Source: Candidatus Bathyarchaeota archaeon (GTDB lineage: Archaea; Thermoproteota; Bathyarchaeia; 40CM-2-53-6). From it: a stretch of 64,000 nucleotides of DNA. Each line of letters starts with the position of its first letter. Within the stretch, counting starts at the first letter, position 1. The notes under the pieces were generated by a model that ran no database searches, was not told the origin of the DNA, and saw only the letters and a program-made list of their open reading frames with translations. A program made the translations under genes and the position numbers. The DNA lies in NCBI GenBank assembly GCA_963733055.1, contig CAVTBR010000002.1, forward strand, positions 128,001-192,000. The letters are read 5' to 3'. Positions 39,518-53,504 of this stretch are shown here, in pieces.

Positions 39518-40636
39518 CTATGGTTCGGCCTCGATACCATCCGATTGGTCCAACATTTTTTGAATAGTTGAGTTAAGGACTACTTCCGCAACATCAGTCG
39601 CGTACTCGCCGATTCTTCTCAGGCTCTCCGAGATTAAGCGGATCGCCGAGAGGTCACCCGCGGGAAGCTTCTCCTTGAGCAACCTCTCAACCAGTTTCGA
39701 TTCGAGGTCGGTAACTTTGTTCCCTTCAAATAGTACGGTCTCCGCGAGTTTGTAATCGTAGGCGAAGAGAGCTCGCAGGGAGGTTTCCATCATTTTGGAG
39801 GATTGCATGCTCAGCGCGTTCGCGTCCTTGAACAAAGATGCTGAGGGAGCCTGTTGCAGGAGTAGCACGTTCACTCCGATTCTTGCGGCGTGATCCGCAG
39901 ACCTCTCAACGCTCTTGCTAATGATACGATATCCCAGGCATTCGACGGGGGAGGTTAAACCTATTCTCGAAAGCAGCGTGGGATGTTTTACGGCCCACTT
40001 AAGTTGCCTAATCACATACAAGCTGAACCTGTCGATCTCATCGTCAATCTTCACAACCTGATTTGCCAATTCTTTGTCTAGTCTCGAAAATGCCTGCATG
40101 GAATCCTGCTGCATTGCGTTCAGAATTGATAGCATCCTTCTCAGAGCATCCGGTACAAGCAGCTGTGGGTAACTTAACAGAACTTGCAAAGTTGCGCTCT
40201 GGGCAGACTCCGTAACTAACTCCGTGCCCACCAGCTTACCCCTCGCGACATCACGAATGGTATCCCGAATGGGGGCGGCGAGGTTTCCGGACTTAGACCT
40301 AATTTCAATAGTCGAGTAACCCGCAACGTAGAGCGAGATGATCATTCTAGTTAGAGCGTCGGGGTCAATGTTGGGGTTAAGAGACATTGTGCATCGGGTG
40401 CGTTCGTCGTCGTACTTCGTGCTGCCGAATGGAGTGAGAGTGAGTCCCCAGTTTTCCTGCTTGCTAAACTCGACGCGGCCTCCCTTTCTGAGACCTGCTT
40501 CCTGAACCCAAGGCTTGGGGAGTGACACTATGTAGGATCCGCGGCCCGTCACCTGGACGCGTCGTACATATCGATCCTCAGCGGCTGATGGTTCTTCTCC
40601 TGTCTCCTTCTTTGGATCCGGGGGATTTGCTTTCAT
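39518..40636 (-). CDS. AbrB-PhoU phosphate uptake regulator
   Basis: RRVQVTGRGSYIVSLPKPW (AbrB) plus two PhoU domains (ERSADHA, RRIGEY). Confidence 0.92.
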   Translation of the reverse strand: MKANPPDPKKETGEEPSAAEDRYVRRVQVTGRGSYIVSLPKPWVQEAGLRKGGRVEFSKQENWGLTLTPFGSTKYDDERTRCTMSLNPNIDPDALTRMIISLYVAGYSTIEIRSKSGNLAAPIRDTIRDVARGKLVGTELVTESAQSATLQVLLSYPQLLVPDALRRMLSILNAMQQDSMQAFSRLDKELANQVVKIDDEIDRFSLYVIRQLKWAVKHPTLLSRIGLTSPVECLGYRIISKSVERSADHAARIGVNVLLLQQAPSASLFKDANALSMQSSKMMETSLRALFAYDYKLAETVLFEGNKVTDLESKLVERLLKEKLPAGDLSAIRLISESLRRIGEYATDVAEVVLNSTIQKMLDQSDGIEAEP

Positions 40637-40640
40637 GATC

Positions 40641-41267
40641 TCAAGTCTTCGATCCGGTTACGATGTAAACTACTGAGTCTCCGATGTAACATGCGTGATC
40701 AGCAATTCTCTCCAGATACCTCAACACCAAGGTTGACGCGAGAGCGCATCTGACTGTGAGTGTCTTATCATTGGCCATCGCGGCGGCGTACTTGTAGTAT
40801 ACCTTGTCAACCTCATCGTCGTCTTTCCTTAGCGAGCGCGCAAGTTCCGTGTCGCGAGTCTTGAACGATTGAATACTTCTCTCAATCATGCTTGTAACTT
40901 TCTCACTTAACTCGTGAATTACAGACTTGTCGCAAGCTGACAAATCTCCGTAGGTCTTGAGAACCAGTGCGATGTCGTAGGCGTATCGTCCGAATCTGGA
41001 AAAACCATACGCGATTTCTAGACATGATTTGATGAAGCGTAAATCCGTTGCTACGGGTTGATAACGTGCTAAGAGGTCGACGCCGAGCTCCTCAACTTCC
41101 GCGGTTAGCTGCGCCAGCTGAGCTGCTCTCTTCCGCGCAGCATCGGTCGCCTTCTGCCCCTTTTCGTAGGCTTCGAGGGCCTTGACTACGGAATCTTGAG
41201 CTAGGTTGGACATGTCGACGATTGCGCTGGAGAGTCTTTCCTCACCCATGTCCATTAGCCGCGGCAT
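40641..41267 (-). CDS. phoU: Phosphate signalling protein PhoU
   Basis: ARYQPVATDLR, DDEVD and YLERIADH motifs. Confidence 0.93.
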   Translation of the reverse strand: MPRLMDMGEERLSSAIVDMSNLAQDSVVKALEAYEKGQKATDAARKRAAQLAQLTAEVEELGVDLLARYQPVATDLRFIKSCLEIAYGFSRFGRYAYDIALVLKTYGDLSACDKSVIHELSEKVTSMIERSIQSFKTRDTELARSLRKDDDEVDKVYYKYAAAMANDKTLTVRCALASTLVLRYLERIADHACYIGDSVVYIVTGSKT

Positions 41268-41273
41268 CGAGAT

Positions 41274-42104
41274 TCACCCGAACTTTCCACTGATGTATCG
41301 TTCCGTGAGTTCGTTGTGTGGGTTCTGGAAGATTTCTGTCGTCGGCCCATACTCGATGAGCCTACCGAGGTAAAGGAATCCGGTAAGGTCGGAGATGCGC
41401 GCTGCCTGTTGCATATTGTGTGTTACAACGATTACTGTGTAGGTCGCCTTCAGTTTTGTTATGAGTTCCTCAATCTTTGCGGTCGCAATGGGGTCGAGTG
41501 CTGAGCAGGGTTCGTCCATGAGGATAACTTCAGGTTCCACGGCTAGGGTGCGTGCGATGCACAGTCTCTGCTGTTGTCCACCAGATATACTCGCCCCGGA
41601 TTCCTTTATTCTGTCACCGATCTCGTCCCAAAGGAATGATTTCTTGAGGTTCTCCTCAACTCTTTCTGCGATGACCTTCCGATCGTGAACTCCATTAAGC
41701 CGAAGGCCTGCCGCGACATTGTCGTATATTGACATTGTTGGGAATGGGTTTGGTTTTTGGAATACCATTCCTATCCTTCGACGCACGACGACAGGATCCA
41801 TTGACGAGGAAAGAATGTCTTCGCCGTCAAGTATTATGTGACCATTGGTCCACGCGTCAGGGGTGACCTCATGCATTCTATTTAGGCAGCGGATGAATGT
41901 GGATTTGCCGCACCCTGAGGGACCAATTATGGCGGTGACTGTATTTTCCTTGAATGAGATGGATATGTCATCTAGGACTTTTTTTCGGCCGAATCCAGCG
42001 TTTAGGCCTGTTACCTGCATTTTCTCCTTTAAATTGGACAAATCGAGGACTCTCTTGTCGGCTTCCGGAGTACTATCTAACTGTGTTACGAGTTCTGAAC
42101 TCAT
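41274..42104 (-). CDS. pstB: Phosphate ABC transporter ATPase
   Basis: GPSGCGKS, FQKPNPFP, SGGQQQRL, DEPCSALDP and YISGKFG motifs. Confidence 0.96.
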   Translation of the reverse strand: MSSELVTQLDSTPEADKRVLDLSNLKEKMQVTGLNAGFGRKKVLDDISISFKENTVTAIIGPSGCGKSTFIRCLNRMHEVTPDAWTNGHIILDGEDILSSSMDPVVVRRRIGMVFQKPNPFPTMSIYDNVAAGLRLNGVHDRKVIAERVEENLKKSFLWDEIGDRIKESGASISGGQQQRLCIARTLAVEPEVILMDEPCSALDPIATAKIEELITKLKATYTVIVVTHNMQQAARISDLTGFLYLGRLIEYGPTTEIFQNPHNELTERYISGKFG

Positions 42105-42171: not shown

Positions 42172-42258
42172 GATAACAGTGCTGACACATGTGCACGCAT
42201 GTTCACAATGCGTTTTCGCTAAATAAGAATCGGCGTCTACGTGCCTCCGATGATTCGT

Positions 42259-43530
42259 ATGTCTAGCAAGACCTCGAAACGTAATGTCGGAATAGTTGCT
42301 CTTGTTGTCGTCATCCTGGCGGCAGTTGCAGGAGGATACTACTTCACGACAATGAACAACAGTCAAAGCACGTCAGCAACATCCATGATGACCTCTGATA
42401 CCTCGATGATATCTTCAGAGTCATCGATAATGACTTCAGCAACCATGACTGAAACCTCCATGGCCTCGTCAACATCTTCTGTCGCAGGATACCAACCAAC
42501 CACGCCCGTCTCGCTTCTTGGAGCGGGGGCAACGTTTCCCGCCCCGTTACTTCAGAAATGGACGGTCACATACAACCAGCTATACCCCGCAGTCACCATA
42601 AGCTACAACCCGATCGGCAGTGGGGGCGGAATACAACAGATATCAGCAAAGACGGTGGACTTCGGAGCCTCGGACGCTCCGCTAAATAGCGCACAGTTCG
42701 CGGCGGCGCCAGGTCTATCTCTCTTCCCTGAGACACTTGGTGGCGTAGCTATAACCTACAATCTGGCGGCATGGGGCGTCGGCAATAACGTTACGTTGAA
42801 CTTCACGCCGGAAGTCATCGTTGGCATCTACTTGGGGAACATACTCAAATGGAATGACCCAGCTCTCGTAGCACTCAACCCTGGAGTGAATCTACCGAAC
42901 GGCTTCATCACCACAGTGCACAGGTCAGATGGCAGCGGAACCACATATGCATTCACGAACTACCTTTCCGTTGTCAGCCCAAACTGGGCATCGCAAGTAG
43001 GCTACAGCACGTCCGTTACTTGGCCTGCTGACACGAAACTTGGGGCCATCGGTGTTGGTTCAAAGGGTAATTCCGGAGTTGCAGGCACAGTCGCGAACAC
43101 CAATGGGGCAATAGGATATGTTGACCTCATCTACGCAGTCCAGAACAATCTTGGAGTAGGAGCCGTCAAGAATGCAGCAGGCAATTTCGTTGTACCGACT
43201 CTACAAACGATTCTCTACGCAGCCCAGAACGCAACCGGCACCCCCAACCCCGCAGACCTTCGAGTGCACATAGTTAACGCCGCAGGAGCACAATCCTATC
43301 CGATCGCAACCTACACCTACATACTCGTCTACAAAGACCTGTCAGCAAACCCTAGCACGACTCACGACAAAGCAGTAGCGCTAGTTCACTTCCTTTGGTG
43401 GGCGATCCACGATGGACAGCAGTATTCATCGCCCTTGGACTACGTGCCACTCCCTGCCAATGTCGTTGCAGCGGATGAACAATTCCTGATGACTCTGAAC
43501 TATCAAGGCACAGTCCTCCTAACCGGATAG
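42259..43530 (+). CDS. pstS: Phosphate-binding protein PstS with TM anchor and S/T/M-rich stalk
   Basis: GAGATFP, GSGGG, DFGASD, HRSDGSGTT and YPI motifs. Confidence 0.95.
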   Translation: MSSKTSKRNVGIVALVVVILAAVAGGYYFTTMNNSQSTSATSMMTSDTSMISSESSIMTSATMTETSMASSTSSVAGYQPTTPVSLLGAGATFPAPLLQKWTVTYNQLYPAVTISYNPIGSGGGIQQISAKTVDFGASDAPLNSAQFAAAPGLSLFPETLGGVAITYNLAAWGVGNNVTLNFTPEVIVGIYLGNILKWNDPALVALNPGVNLPNGFITTVHRSDGSGTTYAFTNYLSVVSPNWASQVGYSTSVTWPADTKLGAIGVGSKGNSGVAGTVANTNGAIGYVDLIYAVQNNLGVGAVKNAAGNFVVPTLQTILYAAQNATGTPNPADLRVHIVNAAGAQSYPIATYTYILVYKDLSANPSTTHDKAVALVHFLWWAIHDGQQYSSPLDYVPLPANVVAADEQFLMTLNYQGTVLLTG

Positions 43531-43544
43531 AAGTCAGCTACGCA

Positions 43545-44519
43545 ATGCAAGAGCAACTTGAGAAAAGCCGTGTTCCGAAAAGGACACGGCGCCACGATTT
43601 TTTGCACTTTGCCCTAATTATCGCCGCGGTAGCAATTCCAGTTGTCGCGGCTCTTACCGTGTACTCGCTTTACAATGGAAGTTTAGACTCTATTCAAGCC
43701 CTAGGCTTCAGCTTTTTGACCGGTACCCTATGGGTTCCAAATCCTCCCAACGGTGGGGCTCCAATCTTGGGAGCAGTCCCCGCAATGTATGGGTCAATAG
43801 TCACGACGTTAATTGCGCTGCTATTTGCGGTTCCAATTAGCTTGGGTGTCGCTCTATTTCAATCAGAGTTGGCTCCCAGCAAAATACGACTCCCTTCAAT
43901 CTTTCTAGTTGAATTACTTGCTGCCGTGCCGAGCGTAGTGTATGGACTCTGGGGACTCTTCTACCTCGTTCCATTCATGAGCAATTACATAGATCCAGGA
44001 CTCCTCGGCTCACTCGGGTTCATCCCACTATTCCAGGGCGAAACAAATGGGCTCGGAATGCTGACGGCCGGTCTCATTTTGGCGATCATGATCACCCCCT
44101 ACGCGTCCGCAGTTATGCGAGAGGTTGTCGCAGCAGTCCCACGTAGTCAACGAGAGGCTTGCATCGCGTTGGGCGGAACAAGGCTAGAGACAATCCGAAT
44201 GGCAGTCGTTCCTTATGCCAGCACGGGCATAATCGCGGCCATCGTCCTAGCAATGGGCAGGGCAATCGGAGAAACCATGGCGGTCATCATGGTCATCGGC
44301 AACGTCGCAAGAATCAGCCCTTCATTGTTCCTTCCTGCAGAAACCATTCCAAGCGTGATCGCCAATGAGTTCACAGAAGTAGCGGGAAACAACATTTATC
44401 TCGCCGCGCTATTCGAGCTCGGTTTGATTCTTTTCGTGATCGCTTTTCTAATGAATCTAGTGGGTAGGGTACTAATTTCGAGACTGAGTTTCCATCCCGG
44501 AAGGTCAACAGATGTTTAG
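43545..44519 (+). CDS. pstC: Phosphate ABC transporter permease PstC
   Basis: ELLAAVPSVVYGLWG and GRAIGETMAV motifs. Confidence 0.95.
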   Translation: MQEQLEKSRVPKRTRRHDFLHFALIIAAVAIPVVAALTVYSLYNGSLDSIQALGFSFLTGTLWVPNPPNGGAPILGAVPAMYGSIVTTLIALLFAVPISLGVALFQSELAPSKIRLPSIFLVELLAAVPSVVYGLWGLFYLVPFMSNYIDPGLLGSLGFIPLFQGETNGLGMLTAGLILAIMITPYASAVMREVVAAVPRSQREACIALGGTRLETIRMAVVPYASTGIIAAIVLAMGRAIGETMAVIMVIGNVARISPSLFLPAETIPSVIANEFTEVAGNNIYLAALFELGLILFVIAFLMNLVGRVLISRLSFHPGRSTDV

Positions 44520-45357
44520 ATCCCTGAGTAGACGAAGGTTCAACGATAGGTTGTTTACGGCTCTAGCTACAGTTGCTTTCCTAATTCCCATAATCCCACT
44601 CGCCTCAATCCTCTACGAAACCGCCTCCCTAGGCCATAGCGTGCTGAATCTCAACTTTTTCACACAGGTCACTCCTCCGATTGGTGGAAGTGGCGGTGGC
44701 ATATTGAATGCGGTAGAGGGTAGCTTGGTCGTGGTCGGAATAGCGTCTATAATCGGTATACCCATAGGACTCTTCGCCGGGGCCTATCTATCCGAATACC
44801 CGGGTAGGCTCGCAAACAATATCAGGCTTGTCGCGGAGGTTCTGACGGGGGTTCCGTCCATCGTGACGGGCATCGTTGTATACGTTTTGATCGTGGCCAC
44901 ATTACACAGATTTTCAGCCCTCGCCGGCGGGATTGCTTTAAGTTTCATGATGATACCCATTGTGGCGATATCGACACACGAGTCCCTCAGACTTGTGCCC
45001 TCTTATATCAAGGAGGGCGGCTTGGCTCTCGGAATATCGAGGTCAAAGACGCTCCTCTACATCCTCGTGTCGAGTGCCAAGAGTGGAATCATTACGGGCA
45101 TTGCTCTGGCGGTTGCTCGAATCATGGGGGAAACCGCTCCCCTGCTCTTCACCGCTCTCGGCAGCCAATTCTTGATGAACAGCGTTTTCGACCCGACAGC
45201 CACTATGACCGTGCTGATCTTTGACTTTGGAACTTCCCCGTACCCGAACGCGCATGCCTTTGCTTGGGGCGCAGCCTTCACACTACTGATGATAGTCTTG
45301 AGCCTGAATATAGTAGTCCGAGTCGCGTCAAGATTGAAACCCACGGTCCCCATTTGA
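44512..45357 (+). CDS. pstA: Phosphate ABC transporter permease PstA
   Basis: GVPSIVTG and ARIMGETAPL motifs. Confidence 0.95.
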   Translation: MFRSLSRRRFNDRLFTALATVAFLIPIIPLASILYETASLGHSVLNLNFFTQVTPPIGGSGGGILNAVEGSLVVVGIASIIGIPIGLFAGAYLSEYPGRLANNIRLVAEVLTGVPSIVTGIVVYVLIVATLHRFSALAGGIALSFMMIPIVAISTHESLRLVPSYIKEGGLALGISRSKTLLYILVSSAKSGIITGIALAVARIMGETAPLLFTALGSQFLMNSVFDPTATMTVLIFDFGTSPYPNAHAFAWGAAFTLLMIVLSLNIVVRVASRLKPTVPI

Positions 45358-45426: not shown

Positions 45427-47205
45427 TCAGGCCATGTTGATCAGTTGCTTCGGCGTGAGCAGCCAGATCAGGGTTGCACACTTTCCCATCTGCAACTTCT
45501 CAACCTGTAGCTTGCAAACGCTTCCCTTCTTGAGTAGCGGTCTCGCGCTAGCGCTTCCGGTCGTCAGGGTTGAGATCAAAGCGCTCAGTTGGGGTTCGTG
45601 TCCCACCATGAGCAAACGCCTGCATGGTGAGTATTTTTCTTGCACTGCTCTGATGGCTTCTTCCGGAAGTACTTCGGGTCTTAGCGCCTGTGAGGTTTGA
45701 ATTATCTGCCCCACCCCATACTCGCGTGCAACGACGAACGCCGTCTCCAAAGCCCGCCTATACGGGCTCGTCAAGATCAAATCAAACTGAACATTTAGGC
45801 GACGTAATCCTTTGGCGATCCGACGGAGCCTTTTCATACCCTTCATCGTTAGGGGTCGATCCGAGTCCAGCGGGTAAGCCGCATCGCCCCGAGTAACTGC
45901 GATCCCATGCCTAAGGATGAACAGCGTCTTTGAAGGGGAGGATGCTACGCCGGTCTGCTCATGAATAACTGGCTTCCAGATGCTGCCGAATTTTGGAACA
46001 GACTTTAGAAAGCGTTCGGTCGCCTCAATCTTCCGCCTTTCGAGGTCCAACCATATCTCCGCAACGGCAGATGGTACATTCTCTTTCTTCCATCTGAACT
46101 CAACTAGATCTTTCATGAGGACCTCAAGGTCTTGAATTTGACCCATTAGTCGAGCGAGGAGCGTGGCGGTTCTAAGTTGCCTGCTTTCCAATCCCACTAC
46201 TGGCTGTAGCATCTCGATTGTGTACCGTAGTGGTTTGAAGGCGAGTCGTACTCTATGAATCGACGCGTAATCCGCGGGGGTCAGTGCTTCAATTTTCTTG
46301 CTCAAGTTATCAAAGGAGACATCTAATGAGGCATCGACAATCCTGTGAGAGTTCTCTGATGTTGTAGTGGCGCAACGCGCGTTGAGTCTAATCCTTGCTC
46401 GGTTGACGGCGTTCTCAATGAATTTTCTATCTGATTTCCAGGGAATCTTATTGGCCGACTTGAGGTACGCGGTTTCTCTGTCCCGGAGCTCGTCATAGAA
46501 TTCTTTCATCTCTGGAAGTTCTTTGAGAAAACCGCGTGTCCTTACCATTTCGATGTGTACGTCTCGAAGGACGCTTAGCTCTTTGAGTTGGTCTTTTAGT
46601 TTGACGCGGGCTTGTCTGAGGATGTTATCTGGATTGAACCTGTCAATCAAGTCGATGGTTGTGGTGAGGCGTCGAATACTGACGCGGAGGTCGTGCACGT
46701 TTTTGACCGACGCGAGTTGCTGGTAGCGCTTCAAGCTCTCTACATAATCGTTCCATCGCTTGTCCAAGGCGATGATTATGAAATTAAGGACGTCCGGCTT
46801 GGCTGATCTTCGTCGTATGGGAGCCTTCACGGCGACTCTGCGTTGTGAGACTCTCTTGGGGGCAACAGTCTTCACAGGTTTCAAAATCGGTTTTGGTTTC
46901 TGTATGGTTTTTGGTTTCGGCCGTGGTCGCGGCTTCTGTACCGCTTTCGGTTTCAGCCGTGATTGCGTACTTGGTTTCGGCGGTGGTTGCGGTTTTGATT
47001 TCTTGACCGGTTTTAACCTCTTGATGGGCTTTTGGGTAACATGCCGGGACTTGCTTCGCTGTACTTTACTTGCACGTACTCGTCTGACTTGAATTCTTTC
47101 CCTTGAACCGCTCGCTCTGCTTGGTCTCGCTCTGCTTGGTGCCCGCACCGCGACTCGGCGCTTCTTCGGGACCACTATCTTTCTTACCCTGCTCCTTCTT
47201 CTCAA
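45427..47205 (-). CDS. Polybasic tail + CHAD + SixA-type histidine phosphatase fusion
   Basis: About 135-aa K/R/P-rich N-terminus; CHAD motifs VHDLRVSIRRL, LRDVHI, IHRVRLAFKPLRY, GQIQDLEV; SixA motifs LRHG, DRPLT, SPYRRA, VGHEP. TTG overlaps the upstream stop (TTGA). Confidence 0.9.
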   Translation of the reverse strand: MRRRSRVRKIVVPKKRRVAVRAPSRARPSRASGSRERIQVRRVRASKVQRSKSRHVTQKPIKRLKPVKKSKPQPPPKPSTQSRLKPKAVQKPRPRPKPKTIQKPKPILKPVKTVAPKRVSQRRVAVKAPIRRRSAKPDVLNFIIIALDKRWNDYVESLKRYQQLASVKNVHDLRVSIRRLTTTIDLIDRFNPDNILRQARVKLKDQLKELSVLRDVHIEMVRTRGFLKELPEMKEFYDELRDRETAYLKSANKIPWKSDRKFIENAVNRARIRLNARCATTTSENSHRIVDASLDVSFDNLSKKIEALTPADYASIHRVRLAFKPLRYTIEMLQPVVGLESRQLRTATLLARLMGQIQDLEVLMKDLVEFRWKKENVPSAVAEIWLDLERRKIEATERFLKSVPKFGSIWKPVIHEQTGVASSPSKTLFILRHGIAVTRGDAAYPLDSDRPLTMKGMKRLRRIAKGLRRLNVQFDLILTSPYRRALETAFVVAREYGVGQIIQTSQALRPEVLPEEAIRAVQEKYSPCRRLLMVGHEPQLSALISTLTTGSASARPLLKKGSVCKLQVEKLQMGKCATLIWLLTPKQLINMA

Positions 47206-48784
47206 TTGGTGGTTGCAGGCTCCTGATCGTGATGAGTCTCAATGGGGGGTAATCTCGTTAGAACCTTTTCGACTTTGGATCTCAATTCCTTGTGGATGGC
47301 AAGCGGTGACCTGTTTCCGTTAATGGTATCGAACTTGTAGTCTAGCGTCAGGCGTTGGAATTCCGTGCGCATTCTTCGCTGATAATCGACGAAGCATTGG
47401 TACATATCTCCCGAGCGGCGAATGTCCATCCCAGATTCCCAAAAGTCGAGCATCCCGCTCTTCATCAGGTTTCGTTCGCGAGGATGCGGGGGTTGACGGC
47501 GAGGTAGAATACCGCGTCGGGGACTAAGGCGATACTGTAAACTTTCTGCACCCATTCCCTACTCATCCCCCTGACGACCTCCCGCGCCATGAGAGTGTAG
47601 ATGTAGCGGTCCGCGAGCACTACGAAACCCGCTTTCAGGGCTGGGATGATGTTGTTCTCGAGCTGGTCCGCGAAGTCAGTCGCGTAGAAGATGGTCATTG
47701 TGACCGGACTTAATGTATTGCCCAGCAGAGCTTCCTGCAACTCCGCGGATACGAGACGCGACCTCTTTAGACCAACATCTATTGTCGGATAACCTAGGAC
47801 TTCTAGATGCTTGTGCAGCAGATCAATTTGCGTAGACCTACCTGACCCATCCGACCCTTCGACGACCAGCAGCTTTCCCTTGAGTTGACCAAGGTTAACC
47901 TTTGGGAGCCCTCTTCCAAAGAAGTGCTTCTCAGAACCGTTATTCTGGAACGGAAATGTCACGTCTCCGGCATCCGCTAGGGTCAGTTCGTCATTAGAGG
48001 GGGTCATGGCTTGCAGCGGTTTCTCTTCAGACGCCTCCCTCAAGGCACTCCTAAATTTCTGCTCCGGGTACTGTACCCCGCGCAGACCCGGCGGAACGGG
48101 GAGCGGTCCCTTCGCTTTATGCTTCGATAGATCGATTCGCTGGTTGACAAAATCACGAATAGCCTGCTGCTGGTCATCCGGAGGCCGACTTGCGTCGATT
48201 ACAATGAAGTTATACTTTCGAGCGATGTTGTGGTATTCATTGTTCAGCATGCCCGCGAATATCCGGAAGCTCTCATATGGGTCTGGGGAGAGGTTGAGGT
48301 CCATTCCAGCTTCGTGGTACTTCAGTTGCGGACGGCTTTCGAGAATTCGTGCGAGTGCCGTCTCCAATGGAACGTCAAAGAAGAATGTAGCGTCTGGGTG
48401 TCGTGCGAAACTATAGAGGTTCCTCACCCATTCCGGATCGCATCCCCGAACCACGTCACGCACGAACGCAGTGTACACGTACCGGTCAGCGAGTACCAGA
48501 TAGCCAGCTCTTAGTAACGGGAGAATTTGCCTCTCATATCTATCCGCAAAGTCAGTGCAGTGAATCAGAGAGAACGTGGTCGGGGTCAGCAGGCGTTTCT
48601 TCTTTCCCCTCCGTGTTGCCTTCTTGACCAGAGAGGATGAATTCCATTCCGTGAAAATGACCTTGTACCGTTCTAGCTCAAGCCACCGGCGTAGAAGATA
48701 GATCTGAGTAGACTTCCCCGACCCGTCAATGCCTTCGACGGCGATCAGTTTTCCGGGCAAAGGGTCTTGTTCCGACGAAATCAT
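47202..48784 (-). CDS. Tandem two-domain thymidylate-kinase-like P-loop kinase (apparent -1 frameshift near 47477)
   Basis: Domain 1 VEGIDGSGKST..ADRY; domain 2 VEGSDGSGRST..ADRY. ATG at 48784 overlaps the ppx stop; the C-terminus continues in ORF 47202-47555. Confidence 0.88.
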
Positions 48785-50292
48785 GACGTGATCACTATCT
48801 TCTTCTTGTATGTCTTCTCGAATAGCCGCGCTCCGTAGTTCAGCGCCCACTTTTCAAGAAGCAAGTCCCCCTTCCCTTTAAGCATCAAGATTACTTTCCT
48901 CTTTCTAACAGTGACTTTCACGCTTTCCACTCTGCCGGAGTGTTCTCGGTCGAGCCCTTCCGCGAGTCGAAGCAGACTGGCTAACTTAACGACCGTTCGT
49001 CGTTGTTTCGGAGACAGATCCATGTACTCCCTGTGGCTGGCTTTGGGGAAGGAACGGCTGTGGTAGCGGGTTACTGCAGCGATAACCGCCTTATCAGAGT
49101 CATCTACACCTATCAAAGGGGACGCGTTGATCAGATACAAGGAATTCTTATGATGATTCTTCGTTCCAATGTAATATCCAATGTCATGAAGGAGCGAAGC
49201 CACTTCAAGCAAAGTTCGTTCGGTTGCGCCTAATTTGTGGAGTTTTTTCGTCCCGTCAAAGAGCGCGATGGCAAATCTTGTAACAGTTTGCGCATGCTCT
49301 GCTTCATAATCATATTTTCTCCCCAAAAGCCTCGCGGAAGTGACGAGCTGGGTTCGATCTGGTGGGCCCGAGTCGCGCCCCAATCCGCGTGCCATATCAA
49401 TAAGTAAACCCTCTCTGACTCCGACACGCGGAATCTCGATTTCTTGTATCCTTGCTTCCTTGGCCACAATTTGGAGAACTATTATGGCGGGTATGATAAC
49501 GTCGGCTCTATCCGGCCGAAGTCCGAAATCTCTGATCCTCTCTTCGTAGGATCTTGATTGTAATTGTTTGAGAATTGAGTCGAGGTCATCGAGTGTTATG
49601 GAGGCGTCACTGTCTGCGTCGCATAATTGCACGCGGAGGCCGCCCAGCGATTCGACGTTACCTCCCGTAGCGATACAGAGGTCTACTGCGTGTTCGCCGA
49701 TTTCCTTTCTGAGCCGAGTTCCGGAAACGTTGATGTATTCTCGGGCGAGTTGACGGAAGACTCTATCTCCTCGTTTCCTTTGTTCGAGCATTTGCAGAAG
49801 CCTTACGGTACCAATACTGAAACTCTCCGTTGCGATAATCTCGTGTTCAGTTGCGAGGCTGACCTCTACGCTTCCGCCGCCAATATCGACGAGTAGGGCG
49901 ACTTTACCGTTGAGGCGAATGGCCTTTGATACGGCTACGTAGATCAGGCGCGCTTCTTCCTCGGCGCTGATTATGTCTATCATTATCTCTGTGGCTTTGG
50001 AGATTTGCCTAATGCAGTACTCTCGGTTCCTGGCTTCTCTTAGAGCGCTGGTTCCTACCGCCCTCACCGATTTGACTTTGTGTTGATTGATCAATTTCCG
50101 AAACTTGAGGAACGCATTCATCGCTTCAACAAGGCGCGCATCGGTTATCTCACCGCTCGCGAAAACGTCGGCACCTAGGCGGACAGGCTCACGGTCCGTA
50201 TGTATTATGTGGATTCGACCCTCATCGTCAGCTGACGCAATAGCTAGCCGCATCGCATTCGAGCCAACATCGATTGCGGCAAGCTTGGGCAT
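48781..50292 (-). CDS. ppx: Ppx/GppA exopolyphosphatase with HD domain
   Basis: AIDVGSNAMRL, GTSALREA, EEARL, DIGGGSVE and LLHDIG motifs. Confidence 0.94.
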   Translation of the reverse strand: MPKLAAIDVGSNAMRLAIASADDEGRIHIIHTDREPVRLGADVFASGEITDARLVEAMNAFLKFRKLINQHKVKSVRAVGTSALREARNREYCIRQISKATEIMIDIISAEEEARLIYVAVSKAIRLNGKVALLVDIGGGSVEVSLATEHEIIATESFSIGTVRLLQMLEQRKRGDRVFRQLAREYINVSGTRLRKEIGEHAVDLCIATGGNVESLGGLRVQLCDADSDASITLDDLDSILKQLQSRSYEERIRDFGLRPDRADVIIPAIIVLQIVAKEARIQEIEIPRVGVREGLLIDMARGLGRDSGPPDRTQLVTSARLLGRKYDYEAEHAQTVTRFAIALFDGTKKLHKLGATERTLLEVASLLHDIGYYIGTKNHHKNSLYLINASPLIGVDDSDKAVIAAVTRYHSRSFPKASHREYMDLSPKQRRTVVKLASLLRLAEGLDREHSGRVESVKVTVRKRKVILMLKGKGDLLLEKWALNYGARLFEKTYKKKIVITS

Positions 50293-51650: not shown

Positions 51651-53504
51651 TCAATTGAGAGTTAGGGAACGCAACTGTCGTAGCATTGATGTTTTCTTTC
51701 TTTGATGTGTTTCCATTCTTCGTAGTATGTCGTTGAGTGCCGTAACCGCCTTCACCATATATGGGCCTTTGTTCAGCATAACGCAATCCGCGCGGACACC
51801 CATTGCTGCATCTGTTATTTCAGCCCGAGAGGGCATGCCTTTCTTCGCTAGAGTTTCGAGAACTTCCGACGCCCATATTACCGGGGTGTGGGCCGCTTCG
51901 CAGATCCACAAAATCTCTTCCTGTACTTCAGCCAATCGTTCGTAACCGCACTCGACGGCGAGGTCCCCACGTGCTATCATCACACCGACAGCATCTGTCC
52001 ACCGCATTGCTGCGAACAACATGGATGGAAGGTTTTCGAAGCCTTCTCTAGTCTCGATCTTCAGAACGATCCCTTTTCGGCGGCTCTTCAACTTCTTAAG
52101 CTGCATTATCAGCGCTTCAACATCTTCCTTATTTTTCGCAAAGGAAAGGGCCACACTATCGGCGCATTTCGTTGCAACCGAAAGAGCTTCGAAGTCTTTC
52201 TGACCGAGGGCATCTGTGTCCAACCTAGTGTCAGGTAAGTTAATTCCCCTATCAGGTCTTAGTTTGGACCCCGCCGGTTTAGCGTGTGTAATGCGGACGC
52301 GGACTTGACCCTCGGTCTTGGCTTCTATTACGCCACCGATCTTACCGTCGTCGAACCAGATCGATTGACCAGGCTTCAAACCCGCAAGTGCTTCCCGAGT
52401 GAGACCGCCAACCTTGGGCAACTCCTCTCCGCCTTGACCCTCTGACCCTGCCGCAGGGTTGCCTGTTAGAAGCAGTTTGTCGCCAATCCGAAGGAGTATG
52501 CTAGTTTCAACCGGCTTCATGTCGCCGATTCTACTTTCAGCTGGCTGAGATTCGGTTTCCGGTTTCGTCTTCAGCAGTGTGTCTGGGCCAACGTAGGCCG
52601 TGCTCTGGGATTCAGCCCAGCGTGACTCGTCGACTTCTCCAGTAATTGTTAGAAGCCGTTTTTTCCCGCGCAGATCCGTGAATCTAATCATTGAGCCAAC
52701 CGCTAAGGAGGCTAACCAGTCGCCTTGAACCGGCAACCATGCATCTGCGTTTTCGTTCGGTATGGTTGGTCGCTCGTAGGGGGTTAACCAGATTCGTGCA
52801 GGGTGAATTACGTTTCCAACTTCATCTCGCTTCGGTCCCCACTTAATGACACGAGGTCCAGGTCCAATTTGTCCAGTGCGTAGTTTGCGTCCTGGCAAAT
52901 CGAATTCGACTTGGCAATCCTTTTCGAGTTCCTTCGAAGCCTGACGAAGGTTACGCACCATTCGGTGCCAGATAGACGCGTCATCTCTTGCACAATTTAT
53001 CCGCACACAATCAGTTCCGCAATCGATCAGATCGCGAACCAAAGTGTAATCGTCTGCGGCCTCAGTAGGGACGGTCACCATTATCCGTACGGCCCTATCG
53101 ATTGGTCTCCGTCCCAAGAGTTTCCGAGTATGTTCCTCGAGAAGCCTCGCGCCTTCTTGGAACCTTAGAGCGGGATGCTTAGCCGGGCGCAAGGCTTCCT
53201 CGCCCATTAAGCGTAGGAGGATGTTGAGGACGGATTCGATAGTAATCAGAACGTGACTTTCGCTTCGTCCAAGTGAGGATAAGCCAATCTCGGCTAATTC
53301 AGCTTGTAACTCGCGCATATCGAAGCGCCTGAGCGCGAGATAGTGGACTAGATTTCGAGCACTCTCTCTCCAAGAAGGGTCTGTGGACCGGATGAGTTGA
53401 GCAAAGTGTTCCTCCGCTTCCAACAAATTCACATGAATACGCCGTAACTCATTGATGAGTTTGGTAAGGGTCTTATCGTAACTTGACCTCTGTGGGTTTT
53501 TCAT
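51651..53504 (-). CDS. pyk: Pyruvate kinase, long Pyk2-like form
   Basis: RIMVT, RINCA, DLPGRKLRTG, LKIET, MIARGDL, RAEITDAA and VMLNKG motifs; N-terminal GLSSLGRSESHV extension. Confidence 0.9.
   Translation of the reverse strand: MKNPQRSSYDKTLTKLINELRRIHVNLLEAEEHFAQLIRSTDPSWRESARNLVHYLALRRFDMRELQAELAEIGLSSLGRSESHVLITIESVLNILLRLMGEEALRPAKHPALRFQEGARLLEEHTRKLLGRRPIDRAVRIMVTVPTEAADDYTLVRDLIDCGTDCVRINCARDDASIWHRMVRNLRQASKELEKDCQVEFDLPGRKLRTGQIGPGPRVIKWGPKRDEVGNVIHPARIWLTPYERPTIPNENADAWLPVQGDWLASLAVGSMIRFTDLRGKKRLLTITGEVDESRWAESQSTAYVGPDTLLKTKPETESQPAESRIGDMKPVETSILLRIGDKLLLTGNPAAGSEGQGGEELPKVGGLTREALAGLKPGQSIWFDDGKIGGVIEAKTEGQVRVRITHAKPAGSKLRPDRGINLPDTRLDTDALGQKDFEALSVATKCADSVALSFAKNKEDVEALIMQLKKLKSRRKGIVLKIETREGFENLPSMLFAAMRWTDAVGVMIARGDLAVECGYERLAEVQEEILWICEAAHTPVIWASEVLETLAKKGMPSRAEITDAAMGVRADCVMLNKGPYMVKAVTALNDILRRMETHQRKKTSMLRQLRSLTLN

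Follow-up and report, generated by a model that had tools for sequence, protein, structure and literature searches.

The DNA window analysed here comprises 64,000 nt of contig CAVTBR010000002.1 (assembly GCA_963733055.1) of a Bathyarchaeota archaeon. On its minus strand it carries a polyphosphate (polyP) operon of three open reading frames (ORFs) arranged head to tail, in the order ppx, a tandem thymidylate-kinase-like gene and CHAD-SixA. The kinase gene is the main subject of this work; its product is very probably a member of the PPK3 family, an exapted thymidylate kinase (TMK) paralogue with the catalytic and the regulatory half in one protein. The three genes of the operon are as follows.

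48781-50292, minus strand: ppx, exopolyphosphatase of 503 aa, first gene of the operon (Pfam Ppx-GppA 7.9e-50 and Ppx-GppA_III 8.4e-28).
47202-48784, minus strand: fused cPPK3-rPPK3 gene, 527 aa if read through a 1-nt deletion (two Pfam Thymidylate_kin (PF02223) stretches, 6e-40).
45427-47205, minus strand: gene for a CHAD-SixA fusion protein of 592 aa (Pfam CHAD 4.7e-20, His_Phos_1 3.3e-09).

Translational coupling of these genes, claimed in the initial annotation, is borne out by the ORFs and the sequence: the ATG start of the kinase gene at 48784 overlaps the ppx stop codon as ATGA, and the TTG start codon of CHAD-SixA overlaps the kinase stop codon as TTGA. The two Walker A motifs that the same annotation had named, GSGKST in domain 1 and GSGRST in domain 2, are both read in the translation. 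The kinase gene is made up of the following parts.

48098-48784, minus strand: domain 1, aa 1-229, catalytic, cPPK3-like, with Walker A GSGKST (K24) and DRY (R101); the basic residues specific to catalytic units are K61, K62, R82, R85, R151 and K155.
47927-48097, minus strand: linker, approximately aa 230-286, predicted to be disordered (in the AlphaFold2 (AF2) model of an orthologue from a genome of the same genus, G043, the predicted local distance difference test score (pLDDT) is <50 over residues 230-284).
47903-47926, minus strand: conserved pre-domain motif HFFGRGLP, aa 287-294; its counterpart in split systems is found at the N-terminus of the regulatory subunit.
47202-47908, minus strand: domain 2, aa 293-527, regulatory, rPPK3-like pseudokinase with Walker A GSGRST (R316); DRY is kept.
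Between 47476 and 47477, minus strand: frameshift site with one base missing, located by alignment with the same-genus genomes G043 and G038.

The PPK3 family has already been characterised biochemically by Hofmann et al. (bioRxiv 10.1101/2024.08.28.610084; J Biol Chem 2026, PMC12995831), so that the kinase is neither new nor uncharacterised, as had been claimed for it. In this work, two TMK-like kinases encoded beside ppx in the Sulfolobus acidocaldarius operon sixA-ppx-saci_2019-saci_2020-CHAD are reported to be PPK3. The catalytic (c) subunit cPPK3, Saci_2019, forms polyP from ATP and lacks dTMP kinase activity; the real dTMP kinase (dTMPK) of this organism is Saci_0893. The regulatory (r) subunit rPPK3, Saci_2020, is inactive alone and activates Saci_2019 at 1:1 via oligomerisation (PMC12995831). 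The holoenzyme (SaPPK3) is reversible, with a preference for polyP + ADP -> ATP. The authors proposed a basic polyP cleft conserved in c and not in r, explained the inactivity of rPPK3 by the lost arginine of the DRX motif and named STK_15430 as a cPPK3 homologue (PMC12995831). In our literature search, the terms cPPK3 and rPPK3 in this sense were found in no other paper than that of Hofmann et al.

Domain 1 of the window's kinase matched ST1543/STK_15430 over its full length in a phmmer search against the PDB (2plr, 5h70; E 1.6e-64, 221 bits), and the best canonical TMK in the PDB followed at 2.7e-14. With domain 2 of the G043 orthologue as query, STK_15430 was found at 1e-36 and canonical TMKs at 2.2e-12. 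The AF2 model of this orthologue, obtained from a 32-row alignment with a mean pLDDT of 81.4 and a predicted template modelling (TM) score of 0.78, has two TMK-like domains (residues 7-229 and 285-514) separated by a disordered linker (residues 230-284). A Foldseek search with this model returned chains of ST1543 for all eight best matches (TM 0.92-0.96, root mean square deviation 1.2-2.0 A), with canonical TMKs at TM ~0.76-0.85. The Pfam scan of the kinase listed only Thymidylate_kin, AAA_22, dNK and AAA_17, with no match to PPK2 (PF03976).

The likeness to two-domain PPK2 fusions, to which the initial annotation had appealed, is an analogy only. Hofmann et al. used two-domain PPK2 enzymes (e.g. 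PA3455 of P. aeruginosa) in this way and placed PPK3 in the dTMPK superfamily and PPK2 outside of it, not alignable with dTMPKs beyond the P-loop core (PMC12995831). Common to both types are tandem P-loop kinase domains, one of them inactive and serving oligomerisation, and the polyP substrate; the families differ, and the inactive domain is N-terminal in PPK2C and C-terminal in the window's protein.

For the tree and the motif counts we drew on 115 loci taken from the window's family, from 401 genomes across the phylum (29 with a strong match) and from 80 bacterial loci; six fused database proteins were also collected as c and r units. There is dependence among the 115 loci, and those from bacteria had been selected for the best match to domain 1. 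The tree contained 77 rows, i.e. 29 of the 115 loci chosen for spread, the six fused proteins divided into halves and seven single TMKs, and was built with IQ-TREE (LG+C20, quick mode), with supports from the Shimodaira-Hasegawa-like approximate likelihood ratio test (SH-aLRT). The PPK3 clade stood apart from the single TMKs with SH-aLRT 97. All 35 rows of r units or second domains, including the Sulfolobaceae-like r units and domain 2 of the window's protein, formed one clade (SH-aLRT 98), and domain 1 was placed among the 35 c rows.

Within the PPK3 clade, both halves of the window's protein are nested among bacterial split pairs (Bdellovibrionota, Terriglobia, Planctomycetales), apart from the other archaeal pairs; in this they differ from SaPPK3, as their nearest relatives are not the pairs of the Sulfolobaceae-like genomes or of ammonia oxidisers. 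The nesting agrees with the repeated transfer from bacteria by which, according to Hofmann et al., PPK3 has spread (PMC12995831). Canonical TMKs (PF02223) share the fold, P-loop, DRX motif, lid and Pfam family of the kinase. The canonical copy encoded in the same genome, 28% identical to the kinase, is found on a different tree branch with good support, and KKxxxxGKKK and RYER, with their basic residues, are confined to c units.

A separate observation concerns seven loci (L012-L018) of genus g5 in the window's family. They carry single TMK-like genes with frames of 203-229 aa, one match per genome, which reach 62-81 bits against domain 1, compared with 29 bits for the tmk of the window's genome, and form their own clade (97) adjoining the PPK3 clade. 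These genes may be the sole TMK of their genomes.

Alignment columns showed how the two kinds of unit differ. The Walker A lysine is present in 115/115 c units. At the same position r units have arginine in 106/110 cases and lysine in four, all four in the Sulfolobaceae-like family f31. The DRX arginine, likewise found in 115/115 c units, is kept in 98/112 r units and replaced by glycine in 14/112, all of family f31. Domain 2 of the window's protein has DRY, and the replacement of the DRX arginine described for rPPK3 was not found in it. Absence of the DRX arginine is thus no defining trait of rPPK3, and the Walker A Lys-to-Arg change is the better one, as it marks r units family-wide; this mark and the restriction of the DRX change to Sulfolobaceae-like genomes are both apparently undescribed.

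The six positions K61, K62, R82, R85, R151 and K155 (window numbering) are basic in 96-100% of the 115 c units. The 113 r units have a basic residue in 0-4% of cases at positions 82, 85 and 155, in 26-27% at positions 62 and 151 and in 58% at position 61; domain 2 of the window's protein has lost the c-specific basic residues. This pattern fits the c-only basic residues being the sequence counterpart of the published basic polyP cleft. A further mark of r units lies at their N-terminus. The expression [FYHL][FYL]G.{1,2}[GAS].P was matched in 5/6 loci of the window's own family and in 61/76 bacterial r ORFs, in 0/14 Sulfolobaceae-like r ORFs and in 0/14 r ORFs of ammonia oxidisers, yet the sequences of the latter show a WYG...GIP-like variant. 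An FYGxG[IL]P-like N-terminal motif thus marks r units outside the Sulfolobaceae-like family, and the fused protein has retained it where the linker ends, the linker itself being poorly conserved in the alignment of relatives.

Several features expected of a PPK3 were found together at this locus: greater similarity to cPPK3 than to dTMPK in sequence and fold, placement in the PPK3 clade, an operon with polyP genes, a separate tmk and basic residues in the c half and not in the r half. The detailed comparison with SaPPK3/STK_15430 (PDB 2plr, 4nzy, 4rzx, 5h70) shows the same dTMPK fold, the same pairing of a catalytic unit with a regulatory paralogue, the same operon partners (ppx, CHAD and SixA), a canonical tmk elsewhere in the genome and, in both cases, basic residues conserved in the catalytic and lacking in the regulatory unit; domain 1 is 50-52% identical to Sulfolobaceae-like c units. 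On the other hand, the window has c and r in one polypeptide, and likewise CHAD and SixA, so that the five modules of the Sulfolobus operon are found in three translationally coupled ORFs. In its domain 2 the DRX arginine is retained, where Sulfolobaceae-like r units read DGY, and an N-terminal FFGxGLP motif is present that these r units do not have. The organism, too, is of another kind: mesophile-like, soil-associated, of another class and in possession of PPK2. A named anchor for the r subunit is provided by locus L120 (genome G281), which encodes a protein identical to the ST1543 sequence in an operon ppx-c-r-CHAD, in the same order as in the window.

The initial annotation had proposed that the protein is no dTMP kinase and instead either synthesises polyP or acts as a polyP:nucleotide phosphotransferase, one half possibly being catalytic and the other regulatory; homology, the tree and the separate tmk support this proposal. 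The kinase is not the only tmk of its genome, nor does it group with canonical TMKs in the tree; the opposite was found, as both domains lie inside the PPK3 clade, apart from single TMKs, and a search for a separate canonical tmk located one on contig C1 (C1:1202624-1203151, 114.6 bits, an open frame of 205 aa).

The inventory of the remaining genome, which is 96% complete, revealed no PPK1 (PF02503, PP_kinase) in the whole genome. A PPK2 gene was found at C3:410527-411204 (242 bits) as an intact single-domain ORF of 269 aa (locus L004, 1456-2265, minus strand), far from the polyP operon; the genome-wide PPK2 search gave matches on contig C3 only, the window being part of contig C2. The earlier statement that ppk1 and ppk2 are missing is thus correct for the window and, with respect to ppk2, incorrect for the genome. 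With an intact PPK2, PPK3 is also not needed for completing a phosphate-storage module, the role it had been given. According to Hofmann et al., 'the majority' of PPK3 carriers are without PPK1 and PPK2, with no strict requirement (PMC12995831); this usual absence does not apply here, PPK2 being present. PPK2 was found in 28/59 genomes of the window's family, including all four with a fused PPK3; none was found in the three genomes with split PPK3, but these are only 52-80% complete.

Archaeal AmoA was detected neither in the window's genome nor in G043. It is present in two PPK3-bearing families that share only the phylum with the window's organism (f16, 3/3 tested, and f60, 1/1 tested), and the window therefore represents a lineage of archaea that do not oxidise ammonia, from a class other than that of the ammonia oxidisers.

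The fusion of c and r is real and recurrent, and apparently undescribed as such. Hofmann et al. mention a single fused c-r case and treat it as no more than a possible error of assembly or fusion of genes (PMC12995831). Among 59 genomes of the window's family, seven have PPK3: four fused (G000, which is the window's genome, G043, G038 and G050) and three split (G055, G004 and G010). Of the 120 protein clusters among the matches listed, about 40 extend over 80% or more of the fused query (528 aa); clusters of fused length include Alicyclobacillus tolerans and an Alicyclobacillaceae metagenome-assembled genome (MAG), annotated as 'dTMP kinase' or hypothetical. In the best 80 bacterial loci, 77 had separate adjacent c and r ORFs and none had a fused gene. 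The fused or split state changed at least four times in each half of the tree (nine fused among 35 rows), and fused forms occupy, besides the window's archaeal lineage, at least three further places in the tree, including that of Alicyclobacillus. As certain fused forms branch close to the base in each half of the tree, the PPK3 family may have begun as a tandem-domain protein that was later split.

Gene context was similar in many loci; ppx adjoins the kinase pair in 75/115. The counts for CHAD (at least 22/115) and SixA (at least 16/115) are lower bounds that we did not use, as some loci were available with 1.5-kb flanks and as single-sequence phmmer is insensitive for these proteins (it missed a CHAD gene visible in loci L120 and L123). 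Outside the archaea, c units of the PPK3 type are common in bacteria. The scan of genome contigs detected at least 600 stretches, 581 of them confirmed, and the best 80 (L025-L104) are all from bacterial MAGs, mostly of Verrucomicrobiota and also of Bdellovibrionota, Planctomycetota, Sumerlaeota, Chloroflexota and Acidobacteriota, with c units 63-73% identical to domain 1.

One of the split loci of the window's family deserves separate mention. Contig C234 of G055 (L009; 3 kb) has a split c/r pair followed by ppx, and its proteins group with bacterial pairs. They seem richer in residues encoded by G+C than those of the window; the contig may be a contaminant or reflect a separate transfer.

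Both halves could be catalytic, or domain 2 could be an allosteric sensor of nucleotide or polyP and not an inert scaffold, in which case the label 'regulatory, inactive' would not be transferable from Sulfolobus. We regard this as possible but not probable. The conservation of the P-loop (G-x-x-G-R-S/T nearly invariant, in 106/110 r units), of the DRX arginine (kept outside the Sulfolobaceae-like family and found in 98/112 r units overall) and of R146 in the lid region (basic in 96% of r units) suggests continued ligand binding. Several points speak against an active second domain: P-loop kinases are generally inactivated when arginine takes the place of the Walker A lysine, the basic residues typical of c units are missing (R82Q, R85N and K155D), and in fused proteins of the Alicyclobacillus type the second P-loop is destroyed (GSDYSGHYQ). 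Saci_2020 itself was reported as inactive (PMC12995831). A proposal based on the invariant P-loop, the kept DRX arginine and the conserved N-terminal FYGxG[IL]P motif, which we put forward with considerable doubt, is that the typical PPK3 r unit might be a ligand-binding pseudokinase (for a nucleotide or a polyP end) that sets the response to ATP/ADP, and that the fusion would hard-wire this sensor 1:1 to the catalytic half.

A predicted complex of domains 1 and 2 fell into the 'weak support' class with a score of 0.58, the best control scoring 0.00. The mark was passed by 58/80 solved complexes and 2/110 mismatched pairs; scores passing at <=0.60 were obtained for only 7/80 solved complexes, and also for both passing mismatches. 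The prediction runs agreed in at least 93% of contacts with partner pLDDT of at least 83, and the pass may reflect only the likeness to solved TMK homodimers.

As assembled, the frame of the kinase gene ends after 439 aa at a TGA stop codon (47465-47467), and the remaining 89 codons are in another frame that extends to 47202. The gene is one open frame in G043 (527/549 aa) and in G038 (526 aa), with protein identities to the window's kinase of 91% for G043 (measured on the 439-aa frame) and 80% for G038. A contig of 270 nt and depth 2.9 from the soil-metagenome run X1 is identical to the window over 47256-47524 save for one C inserted behind 47476, and this extra base restores the frame. No RNA run was among the sequencing runs listed for the region, and runs X2 and X3 contained almost nothing of its sequence. 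The tail frame has no stops and is ~89% identical to G043, with conservation about as in the remaining protein; no other lesion was found in the 1.58 kb of the kinase gene.

Further records of truncated products exist. A single Logan contig of 5.9 kb, from a strain similar to G043, encodes P0129, with P0134 as its separately called tail; compared with P0126, P0129 has its deletion two codons upstream of the window's, and its product has the same length of 439 aa and belongs to the 90%-identity cluster of the window's protein. P0133 is the same 439-aa product, recorded from a 535-kb contig. Intact forms of 527 aa dominate this cluster. That two independent indels fall within ~8 nt, in a gene 1.58 kb long, indicates a hot spot for assembly errors or for mutations. 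In G050, of the same genus, the kinase gene is present in three broken copies, and the breaks differ in position from copy to copy; this is in keeping with assembly error and suggests frequent indel errors in these assemblies. For the window's frameshift, an error of assembly or a strain variant of very recent origin is the most likely cause.

Programmed frameshifting was considered for the site at 47476/47477 and rejected: neither a slippery heptamer nor a homopolymer is present, G038 has synonymous changes across the site and intact genes are the rule.

It is improbable that the deletion is real and has left a pseudogene, of which only a truncated protein (domain 1 and domain 2 without its last ~90 residues) would be made, with polyP turnover left to PPK2 and Ppx. 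The frameshift in the assembly, the P0133 record from a long contig, the independent deletion in the Logan contig of the other strain and the intact PPK2 speak for this explanation; the extra base in the X1 contig, otherwise identical over 269 bases, the open and conserved tail frame in a gene free of further lesions, the prevalence of intact forms in the cluster and the scattered breaks of G050 speak against it.

That the kinase is a true, if unusual, thymidylate kinase is very improbable: the Pfam match to Thymidylate_kin (6e-40), the database entries named 'dTMP kinase' and the equally worded PDB titles and crystal papers of ST1543 are outweighed by the separate canonical tmk, by the placement of the gene in a ppx/CHAD/SixA operon and by the published findings that Saci_2019 and Saci_2020 gave no dTDP, which Saci_0893 did, and that the dTMP-binding residues are not conserved (PMC12995831).

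Several points weigh against our assignment of the gene as a single-chain PPK3 in working order. The gene is broken as assembled, and in the assembly of a second strain a different 1-nt deletion lies at a distance of two codons, so that real inactivation or a mutational hot spot at the frameshift site is possible; the X1 run, whose contig of depth 2.9 restores the frame, may be the sample from which the genome was assembled. PPK2 is present, and PPK3 is not needed to 'complete' polyP metabolism. The tree was made by a 'quick' method, and its c side is without support as a clade of its own (61). Activity of the fused PPK3 is inferred from Sulfolobus enzymes only ~50% identical to domain 1, and the characterised r subunit differs from domain 2 at the very motif said to explain its inactivity (DGY versus DRY).

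Reading the kinase as a single-chain PPK3, we can outline how it might work, its activity, the direction of the reaction and the activating role of domain 2 being taken from the Sulfolobus experiments. By homology to SaPPK3, domain 1 would carry out reversible phosphate transfer between ATP/ADP and polyP, probably mainly as polyP + ADP -> ATP, regenerating ATP when ADP is high. Domain 2, as the rPPK3 pseudokinase, would activate the catalytic unit via oligomerisation, as in SaPPK3. The disordered linker of ~55 residues would tie the c and r halves together 1:1, and a dimer of the fused chain would be the equivalent of an alpha2beta2 complex.

The operon continues with the CHAD-SixA gene, which is divided as follows.

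46756-47205, minus strand: polybasic N-terminal region, aa 1-150.
Within 45427-47205, minus strand: CHAD, aa 166-364, and histidine phosphatase, aa 428 to the end.

The histidine phosphatase part is of branch 1 and SixA-like, with the RHG motif. The first 150 aa are proline-rich and of low complexity, with 54 K+R, 3 D+E, 21 P and an isoelectric point of 12.0; polyP or nucleic acid might be a ligand of this polybasic N-terminus. The N-terminus of the CHAD-SixA orthologue in G038 is basic too, and poorly conserved.

Downstream, Pfam matches identify the neighbouring genes.

42241-43530, plus strand: pstS-like binding protein (PBP_like_2 8.3e-34).
43545-44519 and 44512-45357, plus strand: two permeases, pstC/pstA-like (BPD_transp_1 2.3e-11 and 1.3e-15).
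41274-42104, minus strand: pstB-like ABC ATPase (ABC_tran 5e-32).
40641-41267, minus strand: PhoU (PhoU 1.2e-32).
39518-40636, minus strand: MazE/AbrB-PhoU (PhoU 2e-24, MazE_antitoxin 1.2e-07).

The pstS-like and permease genes converge on the 3' end of the operon, and the convergence on a pstSCA/pstB/phoU/AbrB-PhoU locus is as it had first been described. Together, ppx, the gene for the CHAD-SixA protein and the adjoining Pst/PhoU genes are a phosphate-storage island. On the other side of the operon, an ORF of 617 aa (51651-53504, minus strand) matches the pyruvate kinase barrel from residue 321 and from profile position 69 onward; its N-terminal ~320 residues are not explained by the Pfam match.

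The identity of the enzyme that makes or uses polyP in archaea without PPK1 and PPK2 was published in 2024-2026, and the locus described here confirms it and does not discover it. What it adds is modest: a recurrent single-chain form, a better signature of r units, co-occurrence with PPK2 and a further archaeal lineage. Because its two halves come in a fixed 1:1 ratio, the natural single-chain PPK3 is a convenient construct for structural studies and for biocatalysis with ATP regeneration. As the loss of the DRX arginine is confined to Sulfolobaceae-like genomes, the published explanation of r inactivity may not generalise. The presence of PPK2 in all four fused-gene genomes of the genus questions the simple picture in which PPK3 replaces PPK1 and PPK2. 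The host range of PPK3 is wider, too, taking in non-ammonia-oxidising soil archaea and hundreds of bacterial species-level genomes, more than the 'a few bacteria' of which the published abstract speaks (PMC12995831).

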